Assembly (NCBI GenBank): GCA_948857205.1
Contig: CAQPRV010000107.1
Span: 9,272-73,271 of the forward strand
Reading direction: 5' to 3'
Length of the DNA stretch: 64,000 bases
Source: an uncultured Clostridia bacterium
GTDB lineage: Bacteria > Bacillota > Clostridia > TANB77 > CAG-508
Each line of letters begins with the position of its first letter. The first letter of the stretch is position 1. Of the stretch, positions 7,729 through 28,668 are shown one piece after another. Both the position numbers and the translations under genes were made by a program. The notes beneath the pieces were generated by a model, which was not told where the DNA came from, did not search any database, and worked only from the letters and a program-made list of their open reading frames with translations.

Positions 7729-8796
7729 ATGAAGAGCAAATATTTAGAAAATCTAAAAGAAGAAGTAAAGGAATATTTTAAAATATTATCACCAGAATTT
7801 CCAACATGGTTAGAAGAATATATAGACACACCAGAAATGCAAAGAATAAATGGAATAAGTTTAAATTGTGGCACAGATTATACAAAAATATTTAATATTA
7901 AATACTGGTACTCAAATTTAGACCATAGTATTGGAGTAGCACTAATAGTATGGAATTTTACAAAAGATAAAAAACAAACACTAGCAGGATTATTTCATGA
8001 CATAGCAACGCCCACCTTTAAACATGTTATAGATTTTATGAATGGGGATTACGAAAATCAAGAATCAACTGAAGAAAGAACAGAAACTATAATAAGAAAC
8101 TCAAAAGAAATAATGAAACTATTAAATAGAGACAAAATTAAAATAGAAGAAGTATCAGATTATCATATATATCCAATTGCAGATAATGACACACCAAAAT
8201 TAAGTGCAGATAGATTTGAATACAATTTTTCAAGTGGATTAACCTTCAAAAGGGTATGGGATTTAGAAAAAATAAGAGAAATATATAATAATATAACAAT
8301 TTTAAAAAATGAAGAAGGTATTGAAGAATTAGGCTTTAAAGATTATAAAATTTGTGAAAAATATATAAATATAGTATCAAAATTATGGCCAAAATGGATA
8401 TGCGACGAGGATAGAACCAGTATGCAATTTTTAGCTGATATTGTAAAATCTATGAATATAAAAGGTTATTTAACAATAAATGATTTATACAATTTATCAG
8501 AAAAAGAAGTTATAAATAAAATCCTAAACTGTGAAGATGAATATATAAGAGAAAATTTTATTAAATTTCAAAATGCAACAACAGTATATGGAAGCGACAC
8601 TCCAATAAACGATAAATATTGTATAAATATAAAAGCAAAAAAGAGATATGTAGTACCCTTAGCAATACATAACAATAAAACACAAAGAATAAATGAAATT
8701 TCAGAATCAGCCAAAAAGGATATAGAAGAATACTTAAATATTAAACATTATAAATACACAGGTTTTAATTTTTATTTTAAACCATATAGTAGATAA
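7729..8796 (+). CDS. HD-domain phosphohydrolase
   Basis: LDHSIGVA ... LAGLFHDIATPTFKH (His...His-Asp metal ligands). Confidence 0.7.
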   Translation: MKSKYLENLKEEVKEYFKILSPEFPTWLEEYIDTPEMQRINGISLNCGTDYTKIFNIKYWYSNLDHSIGVALIVWNFTKDKKQTLAGLFHDIATPTFKHVIDFMNGDYENQESTEERTETIIRNSKEIMKLLNRDKIKIEEVSDYHIYPIADNDTPKLSADRFEYNFSSGLTFKRVWDLEKIREIYNNITILKNEEGIEELGFKDYKICEKYINIVSKLWPKWICDEDRTSMQFLADIVKSMNIKGYLTINDLYNLSEKEVINKILNCEDEYIRENFIKFQNATTVYGSDTPINDKYCINIKAKKRYVVPLAIHNNKTQRINEISESAKKDIEEYLNIKHYKYTGFNFYFKPYSR

Positions 8797-8828: not shown

Positions 8829-11800
8829 ATGAAATGGACAAAGGAGCAAGAACAAGCAATATATGAAAAAAACTCAAATATACTAGTTGCAGCAGCAGCT
8901 GGTAGTGGTAAAACCGCTGTACTAGTAGAAAGAATAATACATAAAATAATTGATGAAAAAATAGACATAGACAAACTACTTGTAGTAACCTTTACAAATG
9001 CAACAGCGTCTGAAATGAGAGAAAGAATATTAGATGCAATATATAAAAAAATAGATGAAGATCCAGACAATCTAAATTTACAAAGACAAATAACCTTATT
9101 AAATAAAGCTAGTATATGTACTATAGACTCCTTTTGTTTAGATATAGTTAGAAACTATTTTTATGAACTAGAAAATGTATCACCAAACTTTAGAATAGGA
9201 GACACAACAGAAATTGAATTATTAAAACAAGAAGTTATAGAGGAAATATTCGAAAAAAAGTACGAAGAAGAAGACGAAGCTTTTACAAAACTAATAAACA
9301 CCTACACAAGTTATAGAGATGATACGCCACTAAAAGAAATTATCCTAAAAATATACAATTATATACAAAGTAATCCCTTTCCTGAAAAATGGTTAAAAGA
9401 AAAAATTGAGATGTTTAATTTAAAAGACATAAATAATGAAGATTTTAGTAATACAATATGGGGAGAAGAACTACTAAAAGAAGTAGAAGAAGAATTAATA
9501 GATGATATAACAACTTTACAAGAGGTAGAAAAGAGTTTATCTTATGATCCAGAGCTAGATAAATTCCAAAAAATAATAAGAAGTGACATAGACATGTTAC
9601 AAAACCTAAATAAAAATTTAGACAACTGGGATAAAGCCTATGAAATTAGTCAGAATATCAGCTTTATAACTTGGTCAAGAAAGAAAGTAGAATCTCAAAT
9701 AAAAGATGAAGCAAAAATCATTAGAGATAATGTAAAGCAAAAATATAGTAAAGTAATAGGCAAAATATTAATATGTAATTCAAGAGAAGCAAAACAAGAT
9801 ATAGTAGACATGTACAGTACCTTACAAAAATTAGAAAACATCATTATAGAATTTCAAAAAGAATTTTCAAAAAGAAAAAGAGAAAAAAACCTTGTAGACT
9901 TTAATGATATTGAACATTTTGCATTAAAAATATTATTAAAAGAAGTAGATGGCAAAATTGAACCAACACAAGTTGCAAAAAAATATAAAGAAACTTATGC
10001 AGAAATAGCAATAGATGAATACCAAGATAGTAATTTAGTACAAGAATATATTTTAAATGCAGTATCAAAAGGAAAAAATATTTTTATGGTAGGTGACGTA
10101 AAACAAAGTATATATAAATTTAGACAAGCAAGACCAGAATTATTTTTAGAAAAATATGAAAACTATAAAACCATAGAAAACAAAAAAGAAAACGAAGATT
10201 TAAAAATAAAACTATTCAAAAATTTTAGAAGTAGGGATAAGGTATTAAAATTTACAAATGAAATTTTTCAAAATATAATGAGTAGTTTATTAGGAGATAT
10301 AGAATATAATCAAGAAGAATATTTAAATTTAGGAGCAGACTATACAACAATAGAACAAAACTTAAATATAGAGCTTGATATAATAGACTTAAAACAAGAT
10401 GAAGAAGAAACAAAAGAAGAATTTGAAGAAACAGAAGAAGGTGAAGAAAAAGAAGAACAAGAAAGAATAGAAGATGTTGAATTAGAAGCAAGATTTGTAG
10501 CAAACAAAATAAAAAATCTAATAGAAAATAAATTTCAAATTTGGGATGGAAAGAAAAATAAATATAGAGATATCCAATATAAAGATATAGTAATACTATT
10601 AAGATCAACATCAAATATTGCACCAGTTTATGAACAAGAAATAATACATTTAGACATGCCAGTATTTTCGGATAGTTCTCAAGAATATTTAGCTTCTATA
10701 GAAATACAAACAATTATGAGTTTGCTAAAAATAATAGATAATCCAATACAAGACCTTCCTTTAGTAACAGTATTAAGGTCAAATATAGGAAAATTTACAG
10801 ATGATGAACTAGTAGAAATTAGATTATCAGATAAATATGACAATTTTTATACTTGTATGCAAAAAGCAAAAATGGATGTAGATATAAAGCTAAAAAATAA
10901 AATACAGAACTTTTTTGACTTATTATCAAAATGGAGAAAAGAACAAGAATATCTAGCCTTAGATGAGTTGATTTGGAAAATTTATCTAGATACTGGATAT
11001 TACAATTATGTAGGATTAATGCCAAATGGATCTTTAAGACAAGCAAATTTAAAAATGTTATTTCAAAGAGCAAAGCAATATGAAAGTAGCAATTTTAAAG
11101 GATTATATAATTTTATTAATTTTATAGAAAAACTAAAATTAAGTAGTGGAGATTTAGGAGCAGCAAAATTAATTGGTGAAAATGATAATGTAATTAGAAT
11201 AATGAGTATTCATAAAAGTAAGGGCTTGGAATTTCCAGTAGTATTTTTGTCAAGGACAAGTAAGCAATTTAATTTAAAGGACTTAAATCAGAACATATTA
11301 TTACATCAAGACATGGGAATAGGTGTTAAATATATTGATTATGAAAAACAAGTACAATATGATACTTTAACAAAGGTAGCTTTGAAAAATAAGATATTAG
11401 TTGAAACTATGTCAGAAGAAATGAGAATTTTATATGTTGCTTTAACTAGAGCAAAAGAAAAATTGTTTATTACAGGGTTAACTAAAGCCTATGACAAAGA
11501 AATAGAGAAAATAGAACAACAAGTAAATCAATATCCAAAATGCCAAAATAAAATTAATCCTATTTTAGTAAAAAAATATAAAAAATATTTAGATTGGATA
11601 TTGCTTGTATATCAATATGGAAAAGATACAATTAAGGATATAGTGGATTTAAAAGTATATGATAAAAAAGAATTAACGAGTTCTTTTAAAAGTTTTGAGA
11701 AAAAAGAAATTGATGTAATAAGCTTATTAGACAATTATAGATTAGATGAAGATAGAATAAAAGATATATCAAAAACTATAAATTGGAGTTATGCTCATAA

Positions 11801-15506: not shown

Positions 15507-18182
15507 ATGGAAGATAAAAGATTAAAGGATAATTATAATCCAAAAGAATTTGAAGATGATTTATATAGAGAGTGGGAAGAAAAAGGATATTTTAGACCTA
15601 GTATGGATAAAACAAAAGAAAGTTATTGTATAATGATGCCACCTCCAAATGTAACAGGAAAACTACATATGGGGCATGCACTTGATGACACAATTCAAGA
15701 TGTTTTAATTCGTTTTAAAAGAATGCAAGGATATAATACTTTATGGTTACCAGGTTCTGACCATGCAGCTATTGCAACTGAAGTTAAAGTAGTAGAAAAA
15801 ATGAAAAAAGAAGAAGGGCTTACAAAATCAGATATAACAAGAGAACAATTTTTAGAAAGAGCATGGGCTTGGACAAAAGAATATGGAGGAACTATTCAGC
15901 AACAACAAAAAAAATTAGGATGTTCTTGTGACTGGGAAAGAAATAGATTTACATTAGATGAAGGGTTATCAGAAGCAGTAATAGAGCAATTTATTACATT
16001 ATACAATAAGGGATTAATTTATAAAGGTAAAAAAATGATTAACTGGTGTCCATCATGTCATACAACTATTTCAGATGCAGAAGTTGAATATGAAGATGAA
16101 GCATCACATTTATGGCATATAAGATATAAAATAAAAGATACTGAAAAATATATTATTGTAGCAACAACAAGACCAGAAACAATGTTAGGAGATACAGCTA
16201 TAGCAGTACATCCAGAGGATGAAAGATATAAAGACTTAATTGGTAAGAAAGCTATTCTTCCAATAATGAATAAAGAGATTCCTGTAATTGCGGATGAATT
16301 TGTAGAAAAAGAATTCGGAACAGGTTGTGTAAAAATTACACCAGCACATGATCCAAACGATTATCAAGCAGGATTAAGGCATAATTTAGAAATTATTGAA
16401 GTTTTTGATGATAGTTCAATAATGGGAGATTTAGTTTCAGAATATAAAGGAATGAAAGCAATTGATGCAAGAAAACATATAGTTAAGAAATTAGAAGAAA
16501 TTGGAGCTTTAGTAAAAATAGAAGATTACAATCACAATGTTGGAAAATGCTATAGATGTCATAATACAATAGAACCAAGAATATCTGAACAATGGTTTAT
16601 TAGTATGAAAGATTTAGCTAAAAAAGCTGCTGATGTTGTTAGAAAAGATGAAGTAAGATTTGTACCAAAAAGATATGAAAAAATGTACTTTAATTGGCTA
16701 GATAATATTCAAGATTGGTGTATATCAAGACAATTGTGGTGGGGACATAGAATTCCTGTATATTATTGTGATGAATGTGGTCATATGAATGTAGAAAAAC
16801 AAACTCCAGCAAAATGTGAAAAATGTAATTCTAATAAATTACACCAAGATGAAGATTCATTAGATACATGGTTTAGTTCGGCTTTATGGCCATTTTCAAC
16901 TTTAGGTTGGCCGAATATAGAATCAGATGACTATAAAATGTTTTATCCAACTAATGTTTTAGTTACAGGATATGATATAATTACCTTTTGGATATCAAGA
17001 ATGATGACACAGGGAATAGAACTAACTAATAATAATCCATTTAAAGATGTAGTAGTACATGGAATTGTTAGAGATTCACAAGGAAGAAAAATGTCAAAAT
17101 CTTTAGGAAATGGAATTGATCCAATTGAAATTATAGAACAATATGGAGCAGATAGCTTAAGGTTTTCTGTATTATCTGGAACTACTATGGGTAATGATAT
17201 TAGATATATGCCTGAAAAATTAGAACAAGCTTCAAATTTTGCAAACAAATTATGGAATGCGGGAAAATTTATAATAAATAATATATCAACAAAAGAAGAA
17301 ATAATGGAATTTGCTGAAGCAATAAAAGATAAAGAAACTGGTAAATATAGGGCAGATAAACTAAAAATACAAGATAGATGGATTTTAAATAAACTTGATA
17401 ATTTAATAATAACAGTTACTAAAAATATTGAGGAATATGATTTAGGAATTGCATTAGATAATATTTATAGTTTTGTTTGGAATGAGTTCTGTGATTGGTA
17501 TATTGAAATGGCAAAAACTCGATTATATAGCGAAAATAAGCAAGAAAAATTGCAAGTTAGTTTTATATTAAATTATGTTTTTGGAGATATTTTAAAATTA
17601 TTACATCCTTTTATGCCTTTTGTTACATCAAAGCTTTATTCTAATCTTGTAAATTATGATGATAAGGAATTAATGATTTCTAATTGGCCAAAAATGAAAC
17701 AAAGGGTAGACTATGATGAAAATAAGGATATAATTGAAAAAGTTAAAGAAATTATTATTGAAATAAGAAACATCAGGAATAATAAAAATATTCATCCAAG
17801 TAAAAAATCAGAATTAATTTTTGTAACAATTCAATTTACAGAAGAGTTAATACAGATGGAAGAGATTCTTTTAAAATTAGGCTTTGGAGATAAAATTATT
17901 ATAAAGAAAGATAAATGTGAGCTTCCAAAGAATGCAATTAATATTATTAAAGATGGTATAGAACTTTATATTCCTTTAAATGGATTAATTGATTTACAGG
18001 AGGAACATAATAGATTATTACAAGAGAAAGAACGTTTAGAAGCAGAAGTTGCTAGATGTGAAAAAATGTTATCAAATCCTGGTTTTGTTAATAAGGCTCC
18101 TGAGTCAAAGATAAATGAAGAAAAGGCAAAACTTGAAAAGTATAAAGAGATGCTACAAAAAGTTATTGATAGCTTGTCATAA
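15507..18182 (+). CDS. valS: Valine--tRNA ligase
   Basis: PPPNVTGKLHMGHA (HIGH), KMSKS, C-terminal coiled coil, 891 aa. Confidence 0.97.
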   Translation: MEDKRLKDNYNPKEFEDDLYREWEEKGYFRPSMDKTKESYCIMMPPPNVTGKLHMGHALDDTIQDVLIRFKRMQGYNTLWLPGSDHAAIATEVKVVEKMKKEEGLTKSDITREQFLERAWAWTKEYGGTIQQQQKKLGCSCDWERNRFTLDEGLSEAVIEQFITLYNKGLIYKGKKMINWCPSCHTTISDAEVEYEDEASHLWHIRYKIKDTEKYIIVATTRPETMLGDTAIAVHPEDERYKDLIGKKAILPIMNKEIPVIADEFVEKEFGTGCVKITPAHDPNDYQAGLRHNLEIIEVFDDSSIMGDLVSEYKGMKAIDARKHIVKKLEEIGALVKIEDYNHNVGKCYRCHNTIEPRISEQWFISMKDLAKKAADVVRKDEVRFVPKRYEKMYFNWLDNIQDWCISRQLWWGHRIPVYYCDECGHMNVEKQTPAKCEKCNSNKLHQDEDSLDTWFSSALWPFSTLGWPNIESDDYKMFYPTNVLVTGYDIITFWISRMMTQGIELTNNNPFKDVVVHGIVRDSQGRKMSKSLGNGIDPIEIIEQYGADSLRFSVLSGTTMGNDIRYMPEKLEQASNFANKLWNAGKFIINNISTKEEIMEFAEAIKDKETGKYRADKLKIQDRWILNKLDNLIITVTKNIEEYDLGIALDNIYSFVWNEFCDWYIEMAKTRLYSENKQEKLQVSFILNYVFGDILKLLHPFMPFVTSKLYSNLVNYDDKELMISNWPKMKQRVDYDENKDIIEKVKEIIIEIRNIRNNKNIHPSKKSELIFVTIQFTEELIQMEEILLKLGFGDKIIIKKDKCELPKNAINIIKDGIELYIPLNGLIDLQEEHNRLLQEKERLEAEVARCEKMLSNPGFVNKAPESKINEEKAKLEKYKEMLQKVIDSLS

Positions 18183-18193
18183 GTTTGATATAT

Positions 18194-18229
18194 AAATTTG
18201 GACTACTAATTATTTAGTAGTCCAAATTT
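18194..18229. terminator. Bidirectional terminator between valS and cotJC
   Basis: Arms aaatttggactact / agtagtccaaattt. Confidence 0.7.
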
Positions 18230-18242
18230 AAGTGCTTTTTTC

Positions 18243-18869
18243 TTAATTGCAACCACAATTGTTGTTATTTGAGTCATATGGTTTCATGTCATTCATATAG
18301 AATTTCTTTTCAGCTAATTTATCTTGAACGCCTCTAAGCGCTTCTCCAAATCTTTGGAAGTGTACTACTTCTCTTTGTCTTAAATATCTTAATGGATCTA
18401 GTACTTCTGGATTATCACGACATAGGTCAATTAACTTTTCATATGTTGCTCTTGCTTTTTGTTCTGCAGCTAAATCTTCTTGTAAGTTGGCAATAGGGTC
18501 ACCTTTACATGCAATATATGCTGCAGTAAATGGTACTCCTGCTGCTGATGATGGATATACATCTACTCCATGATCTGTATAATATGCACTTAATCCAGCT
18601 TTTTCAATTTCTTCAATAGAAGCGTCTTTTGTTAGCTGGTGTACAATTGTTCCAACCATTTCTAAGTGAGCTAATTCTTCAGTACCTATATCATTTAATA
18701 TAGCTTTTGATTTTTGATCTGGCATACCGAATCTTTGAGATAAATATCTTAGAGAAGCTGCAAGTTCTCCATCAGGTCCACCATATTGTGATATAATAAC
18801 TTTAGCTAATCTTGGATCAGTACATTTTATATTAATTGGATATTGTAATGTTTTATTATAAGTCCACAT
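18243..18869 (-). CDS. cotJC: Spore coat protein CotJC (Mn-catalase family)
   Basis: MWTYNKTLQYP...QYGGPDGELAASLRYLSQRF is near-collinear with B. subtilis CotJC as I recall it. The start is set at MWTY (18869), which follows an AGGGGG SD by 8 nt, rather than at track start 18890. Confidence 0.9.
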   Translation of the reverse strand: MWTYNKTLQYPINIKCTDPRLAKVIISQYGGPDGELAASLRYLSQRFGMPDQKSKAILNDIGTEELAHLEMVGTIVHQLTKDASIEEIEKAGLSAYYTDHGVDVYPSSAAGVPFTAAYIACKGDPIANLQEDLAAEQKARATYEKLIDLCRDNPEVLDPLRYLRQREVVHFQRFGEALRGVQDKLAEKKFYMNDMKPYDSNNNNCGCN

Positions 18870-18895
18870 TAGAAATTCCCCCTTTCCCAAGGCCA
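18869..18895 (-). other. cotJB: Detached 3' end of cotJB (encodes W-PWERGNF-stop, stop overlapping the cotJC ATG as TAATG)
   Basis: The minus strand reads TGG CCT TGG GAA AGG GGG AAT TTC TAA TG. PWPWE is the conserved CotJB C-terminal signature, and it is missing from the upstream cotJB ORF. Confidence 0.75.
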
Positions 18896-18916
18896 GTTTT
18901 CGTTTTGTTTGGAGGA
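18878..18916. other. Left recombination junction of the intervening element (att-like)
   Basis: Minus strand: TCCTCCAAACAAAACGAAAAC-TGG-CCTTGGGAAAGGGGG. The element-side half is an imperfect inverted repeat of the right end. Confidence 0.65.
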
Positions 18917-18937
18917 ACTATTTGTTTATATGATTTT

Positions 18938-19039
18938 TATATCCATATTTATTATTAAAGTGGATATAAAATGGGCTTCAAATGGATACCTTTAATATAT
19001 CCACTTGGGGCTTTTTTTCATATCTTTAAAGTGGATATT
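18938..19039. promoter_or_regulatory. Array of five TATCCA(C/T)-core motifs (DnaA-box-like; AAAGTGGATAT) just inside the element's left end
   Basis: tatatccata 18938..18947, aaagtggatata 18957..18968, aatggatacc 18981..18990, atatatccactt 18995..19006, aaagtggatatt 19028..19039. Confidence 0.4.
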
Positions 19040-19269
19040 TTGACAGACTTCTAATATGCCAAAAATAAACAAAAACTCAAAAAAAGTTGTTTGGAGTTTA
19101 AAGGGTATGATACAGGAAAAGGGATTTTTACAAAATTAAGTGTGTATATTGTTAGTGGTTTTGATATGGATATGTGGCTGATTAAAATTAATGTAAAAAT
19201 TTGTTGAAGATATGAATTTTTTATGATAACATACTATTAATATTTATTTAAGTAATTAGGAGATTTGTA

Positions 19270-19800
19270 ATGAAATTATATGTACTTAGACATGGTGAAA
19301 CTAATATGGGTAAAAATGAAATTATAGCAACTGAAGATGAGCCGTTAAATGAAACAGGTATCCAACAAGCTATAGCAGTTGGAAAAGATATTAAAAAGTT
19401 AAATATCAATAAAATATTTTGTTCTCCAATACCAAGAACGGAACATACATTAAAATTATTTGGATTAAACAAAAATATTCCTGTGATAATTGAAAATAGA
19501 ATAAAAGAACGAAATATGGGAATATATGAAAAAGTTCCTTTCAAGCAACTTAAATGGGATGAATTTTGGAATTATAATTCAGATAGATTATATCCAGAAT
19601 TAGAAACTATGAAAAGTGTATATGAAAGGATATCTGATTTTCTAGATGAATTAAAATCAAGTAATAGTGATGATAATATTTTATTAGTTACACATGGAGG
19701 AATATCAAGAGCAATTTATTGGTATTTTAATGGTATTCCTGAAAATGGGAACTCTTCAAATATTAATGAAAACTGTAAAATCTATAATTATGAACTATAA
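19270..19800 (+). CDS. Histidine phosphatase (phosphoglycerate mutase-like) family protein
   Basis: LRHGET catalytic motif at the N-terminus and a later THGG. Confidence 0.8.
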   Translation: MKLYVLRHGETNMGKNEIIATEDEPLNETGIQQAIAVGKDIKKLNINKIFCSPIPRTEHTLKLFGLNKNIPVIIENRIKERNMGIYEKVPFKQLKWDEFWNYNSDRLYPELETMKSVYERISDFLDELKSSNSDDNILLVTHGGISRAIYWYFNGIPENGNSSNINENCKIYNYEL

Positions 19801-19816
19801 AGAAAGGATTTAAAAA

Positions 19817-21256
19817 ATGAGAATTGGTATAGATATAGATAACTGCATATCTAATTTTGATGATACATTATTAAAAGAATATTTAAAACATGATAAAGAG
19901 TTAAGAAACACAGGAATTATAAATGAAAATCTAGAAAATTTAAGAAAAGGAATGTTTGATTGGACAGATGAAGAAGAAACAAGTTTTTATAATTCAAATA
20001 TTGAAAAGTTTGCGAAAAATCTAAAACCAATAGAAGATTCATCTTATTACATAAAAAAATTAAAAGAAGATGGACACGAAATATATATAATAACTGGAAG
20101 AAATAATGGAGAATACACAAATCCTTATGAATTAACTATTGAATGGCTAGCTAAATACAATATTGTTTATGATAAATTAATACTTACAGATGCCTATGAC
20201 AAACATGCAAAAACTGTAGTATGTTTAGAAAATAATATTGATTTAATGATTGAAGATAATACAAGAATAAGTTTAGATTTAAAAAATAATGGAATTAAAG
20301 TTTTTACAATGAATACAAGATATAATCAAAAAGAAAAAACATTAGATAGAGTTTCAAAGTGGAAAGAAATATACGAAAGAATATCAAAATTAAATAAAAA
20401 AGGTGATAAGCAAAAAGTAAATGTTATTTTGGATACAGATATTTACAATGAATGTGGTGATCAATTTGCTCTTTCCTATTTACTAAAATCACAAGATAAA
20501 TTTAATATTGAGGCAATTACAGTAGCACCATATCATCATGATAATAGTATCTCTATTGAGGAAGGAACTGATAAAAGTTATAATGAAATCATTAAAATAT
20601 GTAATTGGTTAAATTTTGACTGGACTAATAAAGTATTTAAAGGTTCAACAGACTATGTAATAAATGATTATAACAAAGAAAATGATGCAGTAAATAAAAT
20701 AATTGAAATTGCAAATAAGAATAATAAAACTTATATTTTAGCAATAGGAGCAATAACAAATTTAGCTATTGCCATAAAAAAAGAACCTAAAATAATTGAT
20801 AAAATTGAAGTTATTTGGCTTGGAGGAAATAGTTTTTTAAGTAAAGATAATAAGGAATTTAATTTTAAACAAGATGTACAAGCTGTAAGAACTATTTTTG
20901 CATCAAAAGTGAAATTAACTATTATTCCTTGTAAAAATGTAGCATCAAATTTAAGAACATCAATATATGAACTAGAACATTTCTTAAAAGGAACAAGTGA
21001 ATTATGCGACTATCTATGCCAAAGATTTTATGATGATGGTGTGCATGGTATTCAAGAAAGAAGAGTTATTTGGGATATTAGTGTTATAGCTTATATAATT
21101 AACAAAGAATGGTTTGAAACTAATGAAATTAGTTGTCCAAATATTAATGATGATACATCTTATGAACTAACAGAAAATAACCATAAAATAACAATTGTTA
21201 ATTATTTGAATGTTGATAAAATATTTAAAGATTTATTTAAGAAATTAGGAGAATAG
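19817..21256 (+). CDS. Fusion protein: HAD-type 5'(3')-deoxyribonucleotidase-like N-domain plus inosine-uridine nucleoside hydrolase-like C-domain
   Basis: N-terminal GIDIDNC (DxDx motif I, NT5C-like). From about residue 200, VILDTDIYNECGDQFALSYLL and AIGAITNLAIAIKKEP resemble the IU_nuc_hydro blocks. It is a single uninterrupted 479-aa ORF. Confidence 0.65.
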   Translation: MRIGIDIDNCISNFDDTLLKEYLKHDKELRNTGIINENLENLRKGMFDWTDEEETSFYNSNIEKFAKNLKPIEDSSYYIKKLKEDGHEIYIITGRNNGEYTNPYELTIEWLAKYNIVYDKLILTDAYDKHAKTVVCLENNIDLMIEDNTRISLDLKNNGIKVFTMNTRYNQKEKTLDRVSKWKEIYERISKLNKKGDKQKVNVILDTDIYNECGDQFALSYLLKSQDKFNIEAITVAPYHHDNSISIEEGTDKSYNEIIKICNWLNFDWTNKVFKGSTDYVINDYNKENDAVNKIIEIANKNNKTYILAIGAITNLAIAIKKEPKIIDKIEVIWLGGNSFLSKDNKEFNFKQDVQAVRTIFASKVKLTIIPCKNVASNLRTSIYELEHFLKGTSELCDYLCQRFYDDGVHGIQERRVIWDISVIAYIINKEWFETNEISCPNINDDTSYELTENNHKITIVNYLNVDKIFKDLFKKLGE

Positions 21257-21258
21257 AA

Positions 21259-21867
21259 ATGAAATTAACAAGTAACAAAGCATTAGAAATACTAGAAAAT
21301 TTTAGAGGAACAACTCAAAGTGATAAATGGATAAATCATTGCATTTGTGTAGGAAATACAGCAGGAAAAATTGCTAAAGCTTTAACTGAAAAAGGTTACA
21401 ATGTAGATATAGATAAAGCAATATCACATGGATATGTTCATGATATTGGAAAATATAGTGATAAACCACAGAGTCATGAAATGAAAGGTTTTGAATTTTT
21501 AAAAGAAAAAGGTTTTGATGAAGATTATTGTAACATCTGTTTAACACATTCATTTTTGAATAATGATATTATTTGTACAGCTGGTGGTGTTCCAGATCTT
21601 GCAAAAAATCCATTTTTAACTGAATTTATAAAAAACCATGAATATACAATGGAAGAAAAAATAGTAAATTTATGTGATTTAATGTGTACAAGTATAGGAA
21701 ATGTTTTTACAATAGATAAAAGACTAATTGATCTTATTATAAGAAAAGGTGGTCATCCAAATACACAATATCATGTAAAAAAAACATATAAATTAAAAGC
21801 ATATTTTGATGATTTATTAGGATATAATCTTTATGATTTATTTCCAGAAATAAAAGAAAATTTGTAA
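21259..21867 (+). CDS. HD/HDIG-domain phosphohydrolase
   Basis: NHCICVG ... HGYVHDIGK. The start lies 2 nt after the preceding stop. Confidence 0.75.
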   Translation: MKLTSNKALEILENFRGTTQSDKWINHCICVGNTAGKIAKALTEKGYNVDIDKAISHGYVHDIGKYSDKPQSHEMKGFEFLKEKGFDEDYCNICLTHSFLNNDIICTAGGVPDLAKNPFLTEFIKNHEYTMEEKIVNLCDLMCTSIGNVFTIDKRLIDLIIRKGGHPNTQYHVKKTYKLKAYFDDLLGYNLYDLFPEIKENL

Positions 21868-22051
21868 AATAAAATTAAAGTGGATATATTTTTCTTCTAT
21901 AAACATTGAAATATAAGCCTTTAAAAATTTCACTTGTATCTATTTTCAAAACAAATAAAATGTTATATAATCTATGTAGTAGCAATTAACATGCAGATTG
22001 CTACTACAAAACTATATAAAAAAATAAGTAAACACATTTTGAACTAAAATG

Positions 22052-22095
22052 AATAAATATAAATTATCTTCGGACAATTTATATTTATTTTTTTC
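22052..22095 (+). terminator. Rho-independent terminator insulating the cargo operon from the recombinase region
   Basis: Arms aataaatataaattatc / gacaatttatatttatt with loop ttcg, followed by TTTTT. Confidence 0.65.
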
Positions 22096-22124
22096 GTTCA
22101 TAAACTTATGTAGAAGGTGATTCA

Positions 22125-22283
22125 ATGCAAAAAAACACATTACAACCTAAAGTAACAAATATATATGATGAAAATGGCTTAACACTTACAGAATTAATGC
22201 AAGAATGGTTAAATGAAAATTATTTTTTTTGGAATTTAAATAATGATAAAAATGAAATAAAATATAAAGGTATAAATAAATAG
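22125..22283 (+). CDS. Small ORF (52 aa) immediately upstream of the recombinase gene
   Basis: GAAGGTGA SD 5 nt before the ATG. Sequence MQKNTLQPKVTNIYDENGLTLTELMQEWLNENYFFWNLNNDKNEIKYKGINK. It is below the track's size cut-off and has no recognisable domain. Confidence 0.3.
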   Translation: MQKNTLQPKVTNIYDENGLTLTELMQEWLNENYFFWNLNNDKNEIKYKGINK

Positions 22284-22317
22284 TTATCGTAAATTTAAAC
22301 TCTGGGAAGGAGGCAAA

Positions 22318-23868
22318 ATGCAAGAGTTAAACTATAACTTTCCCCCTACTTATTTTAAAGTAGGAATCTACACAAGACTTTCAAGAGAAGATGAAAAAGA
22401 CAAAGAATCTGAAAGTATTGATACACAAAAAAAGTTACTAACAAACTATATAAACAGTCAAGGTTGGACTTTATTTAAAATATATGTAGATGATGGATTT
22501 ACTGGTACAAATTTTAATAGACCAGATTTTAAAAATTTAATCAATGATATTGAACTTGGAAATGTAAATTTAGTCATTACAAAGGATTTATCAAGACTTG
22601 GCAGAGATTACATTGAAACAGGCTATTATTTGGAAAAATATTTTCCATTAAAAAATGTAAGATATATTGCCTTAAATGATGGAATTGATACATTTGACAA
22701 TAATAACACAAATAATGATATGACACCATTCAAATCAGTGTTTAATGATATGTATGCAAAAGACATTTCAAAAAAAGTTCGATCTAGCTTACTAACGAAA
22801 GCATCCAGTGGACAAAACATCAAATCTTTTTTGCCTTATGGCTATAAAAAAAATGAAAAGGACAAAAATATCATTTTAGTAGATTATGAAGTCTCTCCTA
22901 TTGTTCAAAAAATATTTGAAATGTATTATGCTGGAAACAATAAAACCCAAATATGTAGATATCTAAATAATAATAAAATACTAACACCACTTGCATATAA
23001 AAGAAAAACTACAAACTATTATAATCCAAACAATAAAACCAATTTATGGAGTACAACTATGATTTCTAAAATTCTTAGAGATAGAATTTATACAGGAGAT
23101 TTAGTACAACATAAATATAGCAAATTAAATTACAAAACTAAAAAAATTATTGATGTACCAAAACAGCAACATATTATTATTGAAAATAATCACAAACCAA
23201 TCATTGATAGAAATATTTTTAATAGTGTTCAAATTATGCTTGATAAAAAATCAAATGAATGGAATTATACCGCTTCTTCTCCTCATTTGTTACAAGGGCT
23301 AGTTTTATGCAAAAAGTGTAAATCAAAAATAACCTATAATAAAAATCATGGAAAATATTTTAGATGTGTGTGTTCTTCTTATAAAAGAAATGGTAGTAAA
23401 TTTTGCTCCAATATCCATTTAAGAGAAGATACTTTAATTAGTAGTGTAATTACTAGTTTGAAAGAAAACATTTCTGATTTTCTAAAATACGATGAATTAG
23501 AATATATCTGTCCTAATACACAAATAGATAATAAAAAATTAGATTATTTGAATTCTAAAATAACTGAAAAGGATGATTTGATCCAGTCTTTATATGAAGA
23601 TAAAGTAAAAGGAATTATCACAGAAGATTTATTTATCAAACTTTCTAAACAATATGAAGTAGATAAAAAAACTTTACTAAATCTAGTTCAAAAAGAAAAA
23701 GAGATTAATAAGAATACAATAAAAAAAGAAGATTTAATCTGTAATGTGAAAGAATTATTAGATTTTAATGAAAATAACCTAGATAGAAATTTGCTTTTAA
23801 AATTAATTGATAAAATAGAAATAGATGATGACAATATTGAAATTTATTATAAATTTAAAGCCATTTAA
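22318..23868 (+). CDS. Large serine recombinase (SpoIVCA/SprA/TnpX class)
   Basis: VGIYTRLSREDE catalytic-Ser motif and the resolvase core LVITKDLSRLGRDY. The recombinase domain is followed by a Cys-rich zinc ribbon (CKKCKSK...FRCVCSSYKRNGSKFCSN) and a C-terminal coiled coil. GGAAGGAGG SD. Confidence 0.9.
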   Translation: MQELNYNFPPTYFKVGIYTRLSREDEKDKESESIDTQKKLLTNYINSQGWTLFKIYVDDGFTGTNFNRPDFKNLINDIELGNVNLVITKDLSRLGRDYIETGYYLEKYFPLKNVRYIALNDGIDTFDNNNTNNDMTPFKSVFNDMYAKDISKKVRSSLLTKASSGQNIKSFLPYGYKKNEKDKNIILVDYEVSPIVQKIFEMYYAGNNKTQICRYLNNNKILTPLAYKRKTTNYYNPNNKTNLWSTTMISKILRDRIYTGDLVQHKYSKLNYKTKKIIDVPKQQHIIIENNHKPIIDRNIFNSVQIMLDKKSNEWNYTASSPHLLQGLVLCKKCKSKITYNKNHGKYFRCVCSSYKRNGSKFCSNIHLREDTLISSVITSLKENISDFLKYDELEYICPNTQIDNKKLDYLNSKITEKDDLIQSLYEDKVKGIITEDLFIKLSKQYEVDKKTLLNLVQKEKEINKNTIKKEDLICNVKELLDFNENNLDRNLLLKLIDKIEIDDDNIEIYYKFKAI

Positions 23869-23971
23869 ACTTTTAAAACCAAATTCTAATAAATTCACAA
23901 TAGAGATTGTAAATTCAATTTGAACTTGCTATAATATACATATAAATTACAAAGAAAGGAGCTGATTAATT

Positions 23972-24268
23972 ATGTCTGAAGCACAAATTCAAGCAATCAA
24001 AGATGTTATTAAAATGACACCAAGACTTAATACAGAATGTCTAAACTCTATTAAAATTCTAATGGAAAAAGCAATTGATTCTGAACTATTAAGACTAGAA
24101 CCTACTGTCATTTTAGAAAACATGGATATTACAGAAAAAGTAATGTATTTAGACTATTTAACAGAAAGCAAAGATACCAAAGAAAAAGAACTAAAAAATG
24201 CAGTATCTTTTGAAGAAATACTACAAAGAGAGGGGTTGACTTATGATGATTTACAAGATAAAAATTAG
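23972..24268 (+). CDS. Putative antitoxin (called by position; overlaps the toxin start)
   Basis: 98 aa and acidic. TTGTAA-17-TATAAT promoter and AAAGGAG SD upstream. It overlaps the RelE-like ORF by 26 nt. No domain recognised. Confidence 0.4.
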   Translation: MSEAQIQAIKDVIKMTPRLNTECLNSIKILMEKAIDSELLRLEPTVILENMDITEKVMYLDYLTESKDTKEKELKNAVSFEEILQREGLTYDDLQDKN

Positions 24269-24492
24269 ACCTAAAGCTCTCAAATTTATTGAAAAACAAG
24301 ACAAAATTCAAAGACTACGAATTTACAAAGCAATTTATAACCTGCCAAATGGCGATATAAAGAAAATGGTAGGTTGTAAAAATGAATATCGACTTAGAAT
24401 TCGGCGATTATCGAATTATTTATGAATTAAATCAAAATGAACTTATCATTTTAGTAACAAAAGCAGACAACAGAGGACAAGCCTATAAGTAA
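24243..24492 (+). pseudogene. RelE/ParE-family toxin, frameshifted
   Basis: IYKIKIRPKALKFIEKQDK...NEYRLRI, then a frame break near 24402. The canonical continuation GDYRIIYELNQNELIILVTKADNRGQAYK* is in the adjacent frame. Removing one base (the C at 24402) restores RLRIGDYRIIY. Confidence 0.8.
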
Positions 24493-24554
24493 TAATTTTT
24501 TAATTTTAAAATCTTTAAAATTAAACTCTAAATTAAATTTTATTCAAGCAGAGT

Positions 24555-24920
24555 TTAATAAGCTACTCCCAAAACAAACGAAACCCATGGTTCTTCTAAC
24601 CATCTCCACTTATTACAAGGGTAATTAATAGTAAGAGGTCCATAAACTTTTTGGTATTTATCTTTTAATTCTTTAACTTGTTTAGCATATTTTCTATGCA
24701 AACAAAGAGCTCTTTGATCATCTGGATGCGTATCTAAATATAAAGCAAGCTCAGTAATTGCAAAATCATAACATCTAATTTGTTCAATCATTTCTCTTCT
24801 AACGTCGCAATCTATTGTTCTTTCTGGTTCACAGTCGCAACCACATCCACAACTATTATTATTAACAGTTACTTCTTCCATATTGTTGCAACCACAATTT
24901 CTATTTTCGTTTATTGACAT
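24555..24920 (-). CDS. cotJB: Spore coat protein CotJB, interrupted: the native C-terminus is replaced by 9 element-encoded residues
   Basis: FAITELALYLDTHPDDQRAL and KWRWLEEPW are CotJB signatures. After EEPW the ORF reads VSFVLGVAY* from element DNA. Confidence 0.85.
   Translation of the reverse strand: MSINENRNCGCNNMEEVTVNNNSCGCGCDCEPERTIDCDVRREMIEQIRCYDFAITELALYLDTHPDDQRALCLHRKYAKQVKELKDKYQKVYGPLTINYPCNKWRWLEEPWVSFVLGVAY
24562..24600. other. Right recombination junction of the intervening element (att-like)
   Basis: Minus strand: GTTAGAAGAACCA-TGG-GTTTCGTTTGTTTTGGGAGTAGCT. Confidence 0.65.
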
Positions 24921-25267
24921 TTATTACACCCCTTTCCAATTACATTTGTAGCTTCAATAAATCTTTGTTGTTCCATATCTTGACAAGGAACATAAGGACT
25001 AACTAATTCAGGGAATATAGTACCCATTTTTAGACCAACACAAGGCTTAAAGGTTTTATCCATATATTGAAAAGGAACATAACTTTGTGCTAGCATAGGA
25101 TTTTCAGGGAATACATTATATTCTTCGTCAAATCCACAATCACAACTATTACTACAATCTTCATATGAAACAACATTATTACATTTATCTTCAATTATAT
25201 CATTGTGTAGTTCACATGAATTATCTTTGTAGCTATTATTCATACAGTAACATTTTCTTCTAAACAT
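24911..25267 (-). CDS. cotJA: Spore coat-associated protein CotJA
   Basis: LAQSYVPFQ...GLKMGTIFPELVSPY is the CotJA signature. It overlaps the cotJB start by 10 nt. AAAGGAGG SD. Confidence 0.85.
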   Translation of the reverse strand: MFRRKCYCMNNSYKDNSCELHNDIIEDKCNNVVSYEDCSNSCDCGFDEEYNVFPENPMLAQSYVPFQYMDKTFKPCVGLKMGTIFPELVSPYVPCQDMEQQRFIEATNVIGKGCNKCQ

Positions 25268-25363
25268 TTTTATTCCTCCTTTTATATAATTATATGAATT
25301 AATTCGACAAAAGTTACATGCTTTACTTAAAAATTTATTTTTATAGTTTTTTTAATTAAAGTA

Positions 25364-25418
25364 TTGACAAAAAAAGAAAGATATCATATCATGAACATAT
25401 GAACATATAATCATATGA
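25364..25418 (+). promoter_or_regulatory. Promoter plus a putative ArsR/SmtB operator
   Basis: TTGACA at 25364, 17 nt, TATCAT. Then CATATGAA-CATATGAA-CATATAA-TCATATGA direct/palindromic repeats overlap the start region. Confidence 0.4.
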
Positions 25419-25450
25419 AAACATACAATATATAAAAGGAGGAAAATAGA

Positions 25451-25738
25451 ATGCCAAAAGATGAAATAATATATGACTTAGCAGAATTTTTCAAAGTATT
25501 TGCAGATTCAACTAGGATGAAAATCATATATGCATTAATGGAAAAAGAGCTATGTGTATGTGACATAGCAAAAATAGTAGGAACAACACAATCAGCGATA
25601 TCACATCAATTAAGAGTATTAAAACAATCAAAACTAGTAAAATTCAAAAAAGAAGGAAAAGAGGTAATCTACAGTTTGGATGATGATCATATAGCAGAAA
25701 TAGTAAAGAAAGGTTGTGAGCATATTGAAGAATTATAG
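25451..25738 (+). CDS. ArsR/SmtB-family metal-sensing repressor (CadC-like)
   Basis: ELCVCDIAKIVGTTQSAISHQLRVLKQSKLV (metal-binding CxC plus wHTH). Confidence 0.9.
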   Translation: MPKDEIIYDLAEFFKVFADSTRMKIIYALMEKELCVCDIAKIVGTTQSAISHQLRVLKQSKLVKFKKEGKEVIYSLDDDHIAEIVKKGCEHIEEL

Positions 25739-27778
25739 ATATACCTTAGAAGGTTTAGACTGTGCAAATTGTGCAAAAAAAATAGAAGATAAAATAGCAC
25801 AAACAGAAGGATACGAACAAGTAAATGTAAATTTTTCTACATGTAAGCTAACTTTTCAAACTAGCAAAAAGGAAAACATAAAAAAAGAAATAACAAATCT
25901 TGTACAAAGTTTAGAACCAGAAGTAAAAGTTTTAGACGAAAAAGATAAAGAAGAACAAGCTGAAAGAACAAATACAGAATAATAATTGGAATTGCAATTT
26001 TTATGCTTGCAGAATATATATTTAGACAAAATAGTAACAATTACAATAAAAATAGTAGCTATAATAATATTATTATCTAAGACAACCAAAAAGGCCTTTA
26101 AACAAATAATAAAAAACAAAGTCCTTGATGAAAATACTTTAATTTTAATATCTGTTATTGGAGCATTTTTTGTAGATAAATCATTTGAAGGAGTAATGGT
26201 TATAACCTTATATGAAATAGGAAAAATATTAGAAGCAAGAGCAGTTAATAAAACGAGAAAATCAATATCAAATTTAATGAATATAAAGCCAGAATACGCA
26301 AACCTAAAAAATGGGGAAGAAGTACTACAAATAAATCCAGAAGAAGTTAAAATAGGGGATATAATTCTAGTAAAAGCAGGGGAAAAAATCCCATTAGATG
26401 GAAAGGTAGTAAAAGGTAAAGCAGAGATAGATAATTCAGCATTAACAGGAGAAAGTGCACTAATAAAAGTAGAAGAAAAAACTAAGGTATTATCAGGAGG
26501 AATTAATGTACAAGGTTTAATAGAAATTCAAGTAGAAAAAACTTATGAAAATAGTACTGTAAGTCAAATATTAAACTTAGTTGAAAATGCAACAGATAAA
26601 AAAGCAAAAACAGAAACATTTGTAGCAAAAGCTGCAAAAATTTATACACCAATAGTATTAGGGTTAGCGTTAATAGTTGCAGTATTTCTTCCAATCTTAC
26701 AAAATAATATAACCTATAGTCAAAGTATTTATAAAGCACTAATATTTTTAGTAATATCATGTCCTTGTTCAATTGCAATATCAGTACCATTAAGTTATTT
26801 TAGTGGAATAGGAAAGGCATCTAAAAAAGGAATACTTATAAAAGGAAGTGATTATTTAGATGGTCTAAAAGATATTGGAGAAATTGTATTTGATAAGACA
26901 GGGACAATTACAACTGGAAAATTTTTGGTAAGTGAAATACAAGCAATAGATAATAACTATAATGAAGAAGAAATATTAAATTACTTTGCAAAAGGAGAAA
27001 GTTTTTCAAATCATCCAATTGCAAAATCATATTAAATAAAGTAAACAAAGAAATAGATACAACACAAGTAAAAGAATTTAAAGAAGTTTCTGGAAAAGGG
27101 CTTCAGTACAAATATAAAGAAAAAGAAGTTAAAATAGGAAATGCAGGTTTTGTTGGATTAAAAGATAATTTAAAAGTAGAATTAGGAACAATATTATATT
27201 TAAAAATAGATGAAAAAATAGTAGGAAAAATAATTTTAACAGATGAAATAAAAAGAGATGCAAAAACAACAATAGAACAACTAAATAAAAATAATATAAG
27301 AACAAAAATGTTAACTGGAGATAGAAAAGAAATAGCCAATAAAATTGCTAAAGAGATTGGAATAACCGAAATACAAGCAGAGATGTTACCACAAGAAAAA
27401 TATTTAGAGCTAGAAAAATTAATAAAACAAACTACAGGAAATAAAAAAGTTGCATATGTAGGAGATGGAATAAATGATAGCCCAGTATTAGCAAGAGCTG
27501 ATATAGGAATTTCAATGGGTGGAATAGGTTCAAGTTCAGCAATTGAAGCATCAGATATTGTAATAATGACAGATGAATTATCAAAAATAGTTGAAGCTAT
27601 AAGAATATCAAAAAAGACTAATACAATAATAAAGGAAAATTTATTATTTTCAATAGGAATTAAAATACTAATTTTAGTATTAAGTTTATTTGGAATAACA
27701 GATATGTGGGAAGCAGTATTTGCAGATGTTGGAACAACACTTATTACTATATTTAACACAATAAGAATATTAAAATAA
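25716..27778 (+). pseudogene. Heavy-metal (Cd/Zn/Co-type) P1B-ATPase, disrupted by at least three frame changes
   Basis: HMA domain GLDCANCAKKIE, TGESALI, CPC (ISCPCS), DKTGTITTG, HP (SNHPIAKS), GDGINDSPVLARAD. Frame switches occur at about 25964..25979, about 26020..26030 and about 27027..27033. Track ORFs 25716, 25986 and 27308 are fragments of one gene. Confidence 0.85.
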
Positions 27779-27834
27779 AAAAGCTTATACAATTTAGTTC
27801 ATATTATAAAAGGTAGAAGGTATTTAAAAAAATT

Positions 27835-28521
27835 ATGGAAGAAGAAATAAAAAAGAATTTATTTGAATTAGCAGACGAAAGATATAAAGAATTTCATGGA
27901 GGACTATGTCCTGGAGTAAACAATATAATTGGTGTTAGAGTACCAATACTTAGAAAATATGCAAAAGAATTAATAAAAGAATATCCAATAGAGAATTTAT
28001 TACATCAGATAAAGGATGAATATTATGAAGAAAAAATGTTAAAAGGTATGATAATAGGATTAGCAACTGAAGAAGATTTTAACACAATTCTTAATTATAT
28101 ATATGACTTTGTTTCAAAAATTGATAATTGGGCAATCTGTGATGTATTTAGTGCTGGTCTAAAAATAACAAAAAAGAATAAAGAAAATATGTGGAATTTT
28201 TTACAACAGTTTTTAAAATCAAAAAAAGAATTCGAAATACGTTTTGGTGTTGTTATGATTTTAGATTATTATATTGAAGAAGAATATTTAAATAAAGCTT
28301 TTGATATATTTGATAAAATTAATAGTAAAGATTATTATGTACAAATGGCTATAGCTTGGGCAGTTTCCATTTGTCTAATTAAGTATTATAATAGAACAAT
28401 TGAATACTTAAATAGATGTAATTTAGATAAATTCACTTATAATAAAGCTATACAAAAAGCAATAGAATCTTATAGAACAACTGATGAACAGAAGCAATTT
28501 TTAAGAAAAATGAGACAATAG
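27835..28521 (+). CDS. DNA alkylation repair protein (AlkC/AlkD-like HEAT-repeat family)
   Basis: ADERYKEFHGGLCPG..NIIGVRVPILRKYAKEL and W.ICD are typical of the family. Confidence 0.75.
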   Translation: MEEEIKKNLFELADERYKEFHGGLCPGVNNIIGVRVPILRKYAKELIKEYPIENLLHQIKDEYYEEKMLKGMIIGLATEEDFNTILNYIYDFVSKIDNWAICDVFSAGLKITKKNKENMWNFLQQFLKSKKEFEIRFGVVMILDYYIEEEYLNKAFDIFDKINSKDYYVQMAIAWAVSICLIKYYNRTIEYLNRCNLDKFTYNKAIQKAIESYRTTDEQKQFLRKMRQ

Positions 28522-28548
28522 AGATAAACTTTATTTGTCTCATTTTTT
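28507..28548 (+). terminator. Rho-independent terminator
   Basis: Arms aaaatgagacaa / ttgtctcatttt plus a T-run. Confidence 0.7.
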
Positions 28549-28668
28549 CGACACTTTTATAAGAAAAAAATGAATATCTTACTTTACTTTATAAAAAGAT
28601 ACTTTTTTTCCTAAAAACCTTTGCTAAAAAAAACTTTTATGATATAGTATAAAAATAAAAAAAAATTT

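Follow-up and report, generated by a model that had tools for sequence, protein, structure and literature searches.

A compact serine-recombinase element interrupts the cotJ operon of an uncultured Clostridia bacterium: a candidate sporulation intervening element

Some genes of the sporulating mother cell are split by an insert that carries a large serine recombinase (LSR). This is the case of sigK, interrupted by skin (SpoIVCA in B. subtilis, CD1231/CD1234 in C. difficile), and of spsM, interrupted by SPbeta (SprA/SprB). Skin and SPbeta are prophages or prophage remnants of 14-134 kb. The directionality of their recombination is controlled by a small recombination directionality factor (RDF) placed under sporulation sigma factors (PMC5025042, PMC5499854). 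Excision was reported for skin, SPbeta, vfbin, vrin, gin and yin, and the described target genes are sigK, spsM, spoVFB, spoVR, gerE and yabG (PMC4191935, PMC5595907, PMC10747680). The genes kamA and spoVK are also targets of SPbeta-like phages (bioRxiv 10.1101/2021.11.22.469490). The present analysis concerns a 5.7-kb element, here called the cotJB element, that encodes an LSR and interrupts the cotJ operon within cotJB in a 64,000-nucleotide stretch of an uncultured Clostridia bacterium (assembly GCA_948857205.1, contig CAQPRV010000107.1, positions 9,272 to 73,271). This whole stretch is referred to as the window and its coordinates are used throughout; contigs retrieved for comparison are designated by L numbers.

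The cotJB element resembles gin more than skin or SPbeta because it contains no phage genes. Gin, located in gerE of Bacillus cereus ATCC 10987 (GirC and GirX; PMC5595907), is likewise of non-phage nature and interrupts the coding sequence of a small gene of the mother cell. It also combines a serine recombinase with a small accessory factor, and its precise joining restores the open reading frame (ORF). However, gin measures 28.6 kb and carries three recombinases whereas the cotJB element has 5.7 kb and one. The target, the host class (Bacilli versus gut Clostridia) and the accessory protein are unrelated, and the excision of gin was shown experimentally whereas that of the cotJB element is predicted. 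The LSR insert of the cotJB element splits a mother-cell gene as skin and SPbeta do, and the SprA recombinase of SPbeta is detectably homologous to its LSR. In contrast, skin and SPbeta interrupt a regulator or a polysaccharide gene, and the cotJB element a coat operon. Yin, found in yabG of Clostridium botulinum V73 (PMC10747680), is also clostridial, interrupts a spore-coat-related gene and encodes an LSR together with a putative small RDF preceded by a putative sigK promoter. As in the cotJB family, strains exist with and without the element, but yin is a prophage from a single strain whereas the cotJB family is non-phage and spread over many species.

The cotJ operon was already noticed in silico, since a 2021 preprint, with reference to Abe et al. 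2013, names cotJC as one of the sporulation genes into which phages or transposons often integrate (bioRxiv 10.1101/2021.11.22.469490). As far as that listing goes, the operon is the same and LSR elements in cotJC were also found here, but the listed gene is cotJC, the taxa are others and no experimental study of cotJ as an integration target is known. In the literature searched, where Abe et al. 2013 is known through the citing preprint, cotJB was not mentioned as a target and no excision from cotJ was described. The supplements of a large catalogue of LSRs and att sites (PMC10083194) contained no mention of CotJ or sporulation. The suspicion, voiced in a preliminary description of the window made from its letters and predicted reading frames, that cotJB is not a described target is therefore largely right, with the 2013 in silico listing of cotJC as its nearest precedent.

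The cotJ-type operons are sigE- or sigK-dependent (PMC3789822; Henriques 1995 via PMC5025042), mother-cell expression of cotJ being known from B. subtilis (sigE) and C. difficile (sigK) (PMC3789822). In the window, the three cotJ genes are encoded by the minus strand, the start of the cotJB ORF being overlapped by cotJA. The interrupted operon and the boundaries of the insert are organised as follows.

24911..25267, minus strand: cotJA, first gene of the operon (Pfam CotJA, 1.4e-13)
24555..24920, minus strand: cotJB ORF in its truncated form (Pfam CotJB, 7.5e-24, profile positions 2-73 of 76)
24585..24920, minus strand: 5' segment of cotJB, codons 1-112, ending in ...WLEEPW (L001 100% identical up to 24585)
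24585..24587, unstranded: attL core, CCA on the plus strand and TGG on the cotJ strand (3-bp overlap in the L001 alignment)
24555..24584, minus strand: element-encoded tail of nine codons and a stop, VSFVLGVAY-stop, which is the attL-side attP half-site GTTTCGTTTGTTTTGGGAG
18896..24584, unstranded: intervening element of 5,689 bp (missing in L001 and L166-L175 despite flanks that match the window at 94-100% identity)
18896..18917, minus strand: attR-side attP half-site ...TTCCTCCAAACAAAACGAAAAC (conserved in L002, L003, L004, L006, L084 and L085)
18893..18895, unstranded: attR core, TGG on the cotJ strand (sequence and L001 alignment)
18869..18892, minus strand: 3' segment of cotJB, PWERGNF and stop, which holds the cotJC ribosome-binding site (identical in L001)
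18243..18869, minus strand: cotJC, Mn-catalase-type coat protein, intact (Pfam Mn_catalase, 7.6e-55)

The interrupted protein, CotJB', ends in ...NKWRWLEEPW followed by VSFVLGVAY and a stop codon. It is still recognised as CotJB (PF12652) with 84.2 bits against a Pfam gathering cut-off of 29, and its conserved C-terminal motif W-x-W-L-E-E-P-W-P-W-E is completed only after joining of the flanks. The missing end is found directly upstream of cotJC, where the minus strand from 18895 to 18869 reads TGG CCT TGG GAA AGG GGG AAT TTC TAA and encodes W-PWERGNF-stop, the TAA stop overlapping the cotJC ATG. The preliminary description had placed the three genes at these positions, taken the CotJB end for aberrant and located the missing piece upstream of cotJC. 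All of this stands: Pfam agrees for the three genes, and PWERGN[FY] or a near variant closes the protein in 98 of the 120 closest CotJB clusters, as it had anticipated for the family. In 18 other clusters, ...EEPW is followed by a short terminal tail (VSFGLGVV, ASFGLGVI, VSFCWGVM and the like), and otherwise identical clusters occur with and without the insertion (P0009/P0050 and P0018/P0109, same species). The exact reconstituted CotJB sequence was absent from the cluster collection.

The uninterrupted operon was found on a real contig. L001 (2,048 bp; Logan assembly of run DRR818514), retrieved by look-up of the exact CotJC protein, carries cotJA, a 119-aa cotJB ending in PWERGNF and cotJC contiguously. 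Over all 2,048 bp it is 100.000% identical to window 25663..24585 joined to 18895..17924 with a 3-bp overlap. Since 3-6% of the flanking sequence distinguishes the window from other strains of this or a very close species, L001 represents a near-isogenic chromosome without the element. TGG being common to both junctions, the insert extends from 18896 to 24584, between codons 112 and 113 of cotJB and thus inside the coding sequence of a mother-cell sporulation gene. The product of in-frame rejoining therefore exists, the occurrence of the reaction being a separate matter. The comparison with relatives proposed in the preliminary description thus yielded the contiguous cotJABC it had hoped for, and the 119-aa CotJB it had predicted from the two TGG junctions is that of L001.

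The architecture of the junctions is that of LSR substrates. The terminal inverted repeats GTTTTCGTTTTGTTTGGAGG / GTTTCGTTTGTTTTGGGAG, noticed from the outset as imperfect, align with a score higher than any of 5,000 random pairs of 24-mers from within the element. Once rebuilt, attP is a dyad in which 16 of 22 positions match, centred on TG, where the crossover probably takes place. Unlike attP, the rebuilt attB is asymmetric. A dyad attP with an asymmetric attB is the usual LSR picture. Integrase-type LSRs use short att sites (about 40-50 bp) with an imperfect dyad around a 2-bp crossover and a single specific attB, and all relatives of the cotJB element use the same attB. The predicted rejoined (attB) junction is GAAGAACCATGGCCTTGGGAAAGG and the predicted circular (attP) junction is AACGAAAACTGGGTTTCGTTTG. 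Both the att arms and the attP dyad are kept across the elements of the cotJB family, and the CotJB' tail is the translation of a conserved attP half-site.

The recombinase gene is preceded by a small ORF and by several candidate regulatory signals.

22318..23868, plus strand: LSR, 516 aa (Pfam Resolvase, Recombinase, Zn_ribbon_recom)
22125..22283, plus strand: orf52, 52 codons, small acidic protein of pI 5.1, candidate RDF, 35 bp upstream of the LSR gene
22099..22106, plus strand: CATAAACT, sigE/sigK-type -10-like motif located 28-29 nt ahead of the last base of the orf52 start codon
22040..22100, plus strand: terminator-like hairpin with U-run (-17.8 kcal/mol, z = -6.5), conserved in relatives, directly upstream of the orf52-LSR operon
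21943..22008, plus strand: sigma-A-like promoter TTTTCA-17-TATAAT and hairpin with a 13-bp stem (-17.4 kcal/mol, z = -6.0), conserved in L006, L084 and L085

The protein of 516 aa had been recognised early as an LSR, and its three LSR domains (PF00239, PF07508, PF13408) all score above the Pfam gathering thresholds. Besides these resolvase, recombinase and zinc-ribbon domains, it possesses a long C-terminal region, and its catalytic R20-x-S22 motif is invariant across 26 relatives. The best solved relatives are TnpX (1.4e-32, N-terminal/catalytic domain) and SprA/YokA (1.7e-13 over residues 18-497). IMG/VR contained no relative above 46% identity, and GenBank phages none above 36%. Like sporulation intervening elements, the insert thus encodes its own site-specific serine recombinase. 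By its structure it would be one of them, departing only from the old prophage-like definition, already relaxed by gin, as no phage protein was detected in it by Pfam, PADLOC or NCBIfam.

The LSR is associated with a single site. In one-genome-per-species contigs, LSRs at least 53% identical to that of the window occur at six loci only, all six between a cotJB 5' fragment and cotJC, and the next relatives are at most 46% identical. The exact 98-aa protein encoded by orf98, a core gene of the element, lies beside an LSR and cotJB' in several species: its look-up returned ten contigs, eight of which carried the LSR with cotJB', in at least four different genomic backgrounds. One codon is targeted in every case examined over a range of LSR identity of 53-97%. 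The elements measure about 2.9 kb (L196, estimated from called-gene coordinates), 3.5 kb (L004) and up to 8.2 kb (L085). They share a constant core of orf52, LSR and orf98, usually accompanied by a RelE/ParE-like toxin gene that is split over two frames in every copy examined. LSRs 92-96% identical to that of the window, together with a 100% identical orf98, reside in hosts whose CotJA is only 54-80% identical, and the hosts of the 53% and 58% LSRs (L008, L009) have a CotJC 86-94% identical. Since the histories of element and host are decoupled, the family moves between species. Every interrupted locus retrieved is a metagenome-assembled genome (MAG) or metagenome contig, with no cultured carrier among them, and the carriers are many uncultured gut Clostridia from mouse-, rabbit- and human-associated MAGs. 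Overall, the insert belongs to a family of non-phage integrative elements that spreads horizontally and whose LSR clade is dedicated to the cotJB site.

Two other LSR families use the same operon. At codon 65 of cotJC (window ~18674, empty), an unrelated element encodes a 519-aa LSR, 25% identical to that of the window, with a peptidase C1 and a RhuM protein as cargo. This site is occupied in L084 (725..5974), L085 (from 13195), L009 (from 11813), L177 and L183, where the operon is cut twice because the cotJB element is present too. At codons 114-121 of cotJC (window 18505..18529, empty), another element encodes a 540-aa LSR, a HepT/MNT toxin-antitoxin pair and an HTH_36 protein. It occupies L166-L175 (6568..11351 in L166), which have the exact CotJA of the window and an empty cotJB site. 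Within one species cluster, chromosomes were found with no insertion, with an insertion in cotJB only or in cotJC only, and with two insertions. In each of the three LSR families, a small acidic ORF lies directly upstream of the recombinase gene. The use of the same operon by two other LSR families and the double interruptions make cotJ look like a preferred landing pad. In the heterocyst elements (nifD, fdxN/XisF, hupL), several recombinase elements likewise reside in genes of a terminal cell and double interruption of one operon occurs. They differ by phylum and developmental programme, and the XisF equivalog (NCBIfam NF041201), second-best model for the LSR of the window, was rejected with 100.5 bits, far below its cut-off of 375. 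As side observations, cotJC seems to be cut after about codon 36 in a Bacillota MAG whose LSR is 46% identical (L012, 5530..5860), and it is possibly cut near codon 104 and followed by Fic-domain genes in L006 (1..1800), a contig containing Ns that may be a scaffolding artefact.

The remaining part of the element holds a toxin-antitoxin module, three cargo genes and a repeated motif.

24243..24492, plus strand: RelE/ParE-like toxin gene split over two frames, 24243..24425 and 24403..24492 (NCBIfam RelE/ParE 0.0036 with the frame-corrected sequence)
23972..24268, plus strand: orf98, putative antitoxin, 98 aa, overlapping the toxin start
21259..21867, plus strand: cargo, HD/HDIG phosphohydrolase (Pfam HD 5.7e-9; NCBIfam HDIG)
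19817..21256, plus strand: cargo, fusion of NT5C-type 5'-nucleotidase and nucleoside hydrolase (Pfam NT5C 2e-9, IU_nuc_hydro 1.5e-23)
19270..19800, plus strand: cargo, histidine phosphatase, alpha-ribazole phosphatase-like (Pfam His_Phos_1 3.4e-37; all NCBIfam matches below cut-offs)
18950..19040, unstranded: cluster of three AAGTGGATAT motifs (18958 plus, 18997 minus, 19029 plus), with a fourth copy at 21878..21887

In the window, L005, L084 and L085, the break in the toxin gene falls at one and the same place (about residue 52), and the same gene calls of 54-60 aa and 36 aa were obtained in L177, L183 and L185; the gene could be a pseudogene passed on by inheritance or contain a frameshift that is conserved. 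For orf98, neither the family searches nor PDB gave a usable match, and Pfam only a sub-threshold hit to GIDA_C_1st (0.0015). In L176 and L178 (6001..6521), neither an LSR nor cotJ accompanies the exact orf98 and the 36-aa toxin remnant, which are flanked there by the genes of a trypsin/PDZ protease and of a peptidase M23, so this module also travels or persists alone. In L085, the closest relative, the HD and the NT5C-nucleoside hydrolase genes are each split into two frames (7971..8577 and 9626..11061), while orf52, LSR and orf98 are intact. Compared with the recombination core, the cargo looks dispensable. Elsewhere, the cargo comprises MatE fragments, WG-repeat proteins, a DUF4143 protein and a Fic protein. 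Sister cotJB elements also carry Spo0A_C-domain proteins (48.1 and 34.4 bits versus a Pfam cut-off of 25), a sigma factor of ECF type paired with a DUF4179 protein, and a secreted protein of 175 aa. This set, which resembles sporulation regulators although it travels on a mobile element residing in a sporulation gene, is located as follows.

L008 6413..7135 and 9081..9629; L009 6359..7087 and 9011..9556; L085 5539..5970: Spo0A_C, ECF sigma, DUF4179 and 175-aa cargo set

PADLOC returned nothing meaningful on the element, NCBIfam matches for cargo and small ORFs were all below cut-offs, and Rfam gave no match in window 17500..26000. The four exact copies of AAGTGGATAT in the 64-kb window are all inside the element, three near the attR end upstream of the cargo promoter and one upstream of the sigma-A-like promoter before orf52. 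The core of this motif, TATCCAC, resembles a DnaA box, and L006 and L085 have kept the motif. The idea of a promoter pointing outward from the attR end and driving cotJC was set aside, as only weak consensus matches were found.

Upstream of the operon, the following candidate signal was noted.

25289..25314, minus strand: candidate mother-cell promoter of cotJ, AC-N16-CATATAAT, sigK/sigE-like (consensus match read from sequence)

An exact TGTCGAA, the Spo0A-box consensus, is located at 25303..25309 between the two elements of this candidate promoter. Beside cotJA, the window encodes an ArsR-type regulator, an HMA protein and a P-type ATPase (25333..28638), a segment replaced in L166 of the same species (3582..5439) by two unrelated ORFs of 331 and 126 aa. 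From this comparison, the region adjacent to cotJA is a second variable segment beside the operon.

Several features of the orf52-LSR operon bear on the control of excision. Homologues of orf52 with the core IYxExGxxLxELxQEW[LI]NEN precede every cotJB-clade LSR examined, including the 53-58% group in which the rest of the intergenic DNA is unalignable. By its small size, its acidity and its position next to the recombinase, orf52 could be an RDF comparable to CD1234, SprB or GirX. CATAnAnT is the -10 element shared by sigE and sigK promoters (PMC3789822). It is present at -28/-29 from the end of the start codon of the small ORF in the window group, L004, L009 and the unrelated cotJC element (element-2) of L084, counted as three independent lineages for a background of 2-7% per upstream region, and at -39 in L008. 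The terminator-like hairpin with its U-run, whose analogue lies upstream of the small ORF of L084 element-2, would insulate the orf52-LSR operon from the sigma-A-like promoter and the cargo genes. Together with the Spo0A_C and sigma-factor cargo of sister elements, the conserved small ORF, the consensus -10 motif and the terminator-like hairpin offer circumstantial indications of sporulation-linked control. The preliminary description had suggested such excision in the mother cell by analogy with sigK and spsM.

These data can be assembled into a model. The LSR integrates a quasi-palindromic attP (...TTCCTCCAAACAAAACGAAAAC-TG-GGTTTCGTTTGTTTTGGGAG...) into a conserved attB that spans cotJB codons 112/113 and the cotJC ribosome-binding site. 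Integration swaps the last seven codons of CotJB for the nine-codon tail and severs cotJC from the cotJ promoter as well as from translational coupling to cotJB. In the vegetative cell, the upstream terminator would keep the orf52-LSR operon insulated; in the sporulating mother cell, the operon would be transcribed from the sigE/sigK-type promoter. With orf52 acting as RDF, the LSR would then recombine attL with attR and release a 5.7-kb circle. The cotJABC operon would be restored only in the terminal mother cell and the forespore genome would keep the element, the toxin-antitoxin remnant and the variable cargo being accessory. Excision coupled to sporulation, with orf52 as RDF and cotJABC rebuilt in the mother cell, is given slightly better than even chances.

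A number of observations count against such a programmed excision. The preliminary description had suggested looking for the circular attP product, and this search brought no true match: the attP-junction pattern AAAACGAAAMNTGGGKTTCRTTT had six matches in JGI metagenome contigs, all by chance (unrelated flanks, GC of 33-70%, no element proteins), and none in IMG/VR. In the source sample of L001, the exact LSR, CotJB' and histidine phosphatase had no record, the exact HD protein was found only in another sample, and L001 may come from an element-free sister strain. No match to orf52 was obtained in Pfam, PDB, NCBIfam or PADLOC, nor any detectable similarity to known RDFs; since known RDFs share no common fold (PMC12286644), this lack of similarity is uninformative. 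The putative promoter of orf52 is a short consensus match in 25%-GC DNA, and CATAnAnT is absent in L007 and in the third element family (element-3). As the elements are recent arrivals by horizontal transfer, intact cotJ fragments cannot be read as a sign of selection for reconstitution, and any argument from dN/dS or long-term maintenance was dropped for the same reason. CotJB', which keeps 112 of 119 residues, might still work. Moreover, B. subtilis still sporulates when cotJ is mutated, and the coat of C. difficile is without major defect in cotCB/cotD mutants (PMC11222575), so that a permanent cotJ knock-out could be tolerated, cotJ-type genes being dispensable in model organisms.

The insert could instead be an ordinary site-specific integrative element for which the cotJB/cotJC junction is a safe harbour, its excision being sporadic or linked to transfer and the inactivation or weakening of cotJ being tolerated, an explanation that deserves serious attention although its chances are put below even. 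Recent transfer between species, presence or absence within a species, the missing circular junction in both collections, the decay of the HD and NT5C-nucleoside hydrolase cargo in L085 and the dispensability of cotJ-type genes for sporulation all speak for it, as does an LSR catalytic domain most similar to TnpX of Tn4451. TnpX is not known to require an RDF for the excision of Tn4451. What it accommodates poorly is the convergence of three unrelated LSR families on at least four sites of one sporulation operon, hard to explain by sequence conservation alone, along with the conserved small ORF upstream of each LSR, the shared mother-cell-type -10 motif and the fact that all experimentally tested intervening elements in sporulation genes are excised. 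The likeness to TnpX (N-terminal domain, 1.4e-32) also evokes a mobilisable LSR transposon of the Tn4451/Tn5397 type, with loose target choice and a chance landing in cotJB, and a small size (3-8 kb), variable cargo and no phage genes would suit it. Tn4451/Tn4453 (TnpX) and Tn5397 (TndX) are indeed small clostridial elements moved by an LSR. They carry resistance and mobilisation genes and use many targets, and the central dinucleotide of Tn4451 is GA. In contrast, the cotJB element has a strict single site, the same codon being hit in every case examined, and its central dinucleotide is TG. Pfam scans of the window and of the cargo of relatives detected no Mob, relaxase, oriT-type or conjugation protein. 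This origin appears very improbable. Least credible of all would be an assembly or binning artefact in a MAG whose operon is really contiguous. The window was indeed drawn from an 82-kb MAG contig and an uninterrupted identical allele exists (L001), but the junctions have a proper att architecture, two contigs of other metagenomes, L002 and L003, have the same attR junction with 99-100% identity, and L168, L173 and L085 have equivalent attL junctions. Because independent contigs carry both junction types, an assembly artefact is excluded.

A more ambitious version of sporulation-coupled excision, considered unlikely though not negligible, would turn cotJ into a developmental switch with several locks. 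As many as three unrelated LSR elements (cotJB codon 112, cotJC codon 65 and cotJC codons 114-121), each with an RDF-like gene behind a mother-cell-type promoter, would all excise. Their circles would launch interspecies transfer from the lysing mother cell, and the Spo0A-like and ECF-sigma cargo might tune the sporulation decision.

If excision is linked to sporulation, cotJB would be a further target, the seventh or eighth, beyond sigK, spsM, spoVFB, spoVR, gerE and yabG, and the first such case widely seen in uncultured gut Clostridia. The family is unusually compact (~3-8 kb), non-phage and mobile between species. It would bring no new principle; to a phenomenon already known it adds another gene, another group of hosts and a hot spot for several elements. 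As every carrier found so far is uncultured, direct tests are harder. The new sets of LSR, attP, attB and candidate RDF, with their natural single-site specificity, are of the kind from which genome-engineering toolkits are built. The carriers would be natural cotJ mutants if excision is not developmental, which would matter for the spore properties of gut commensals.

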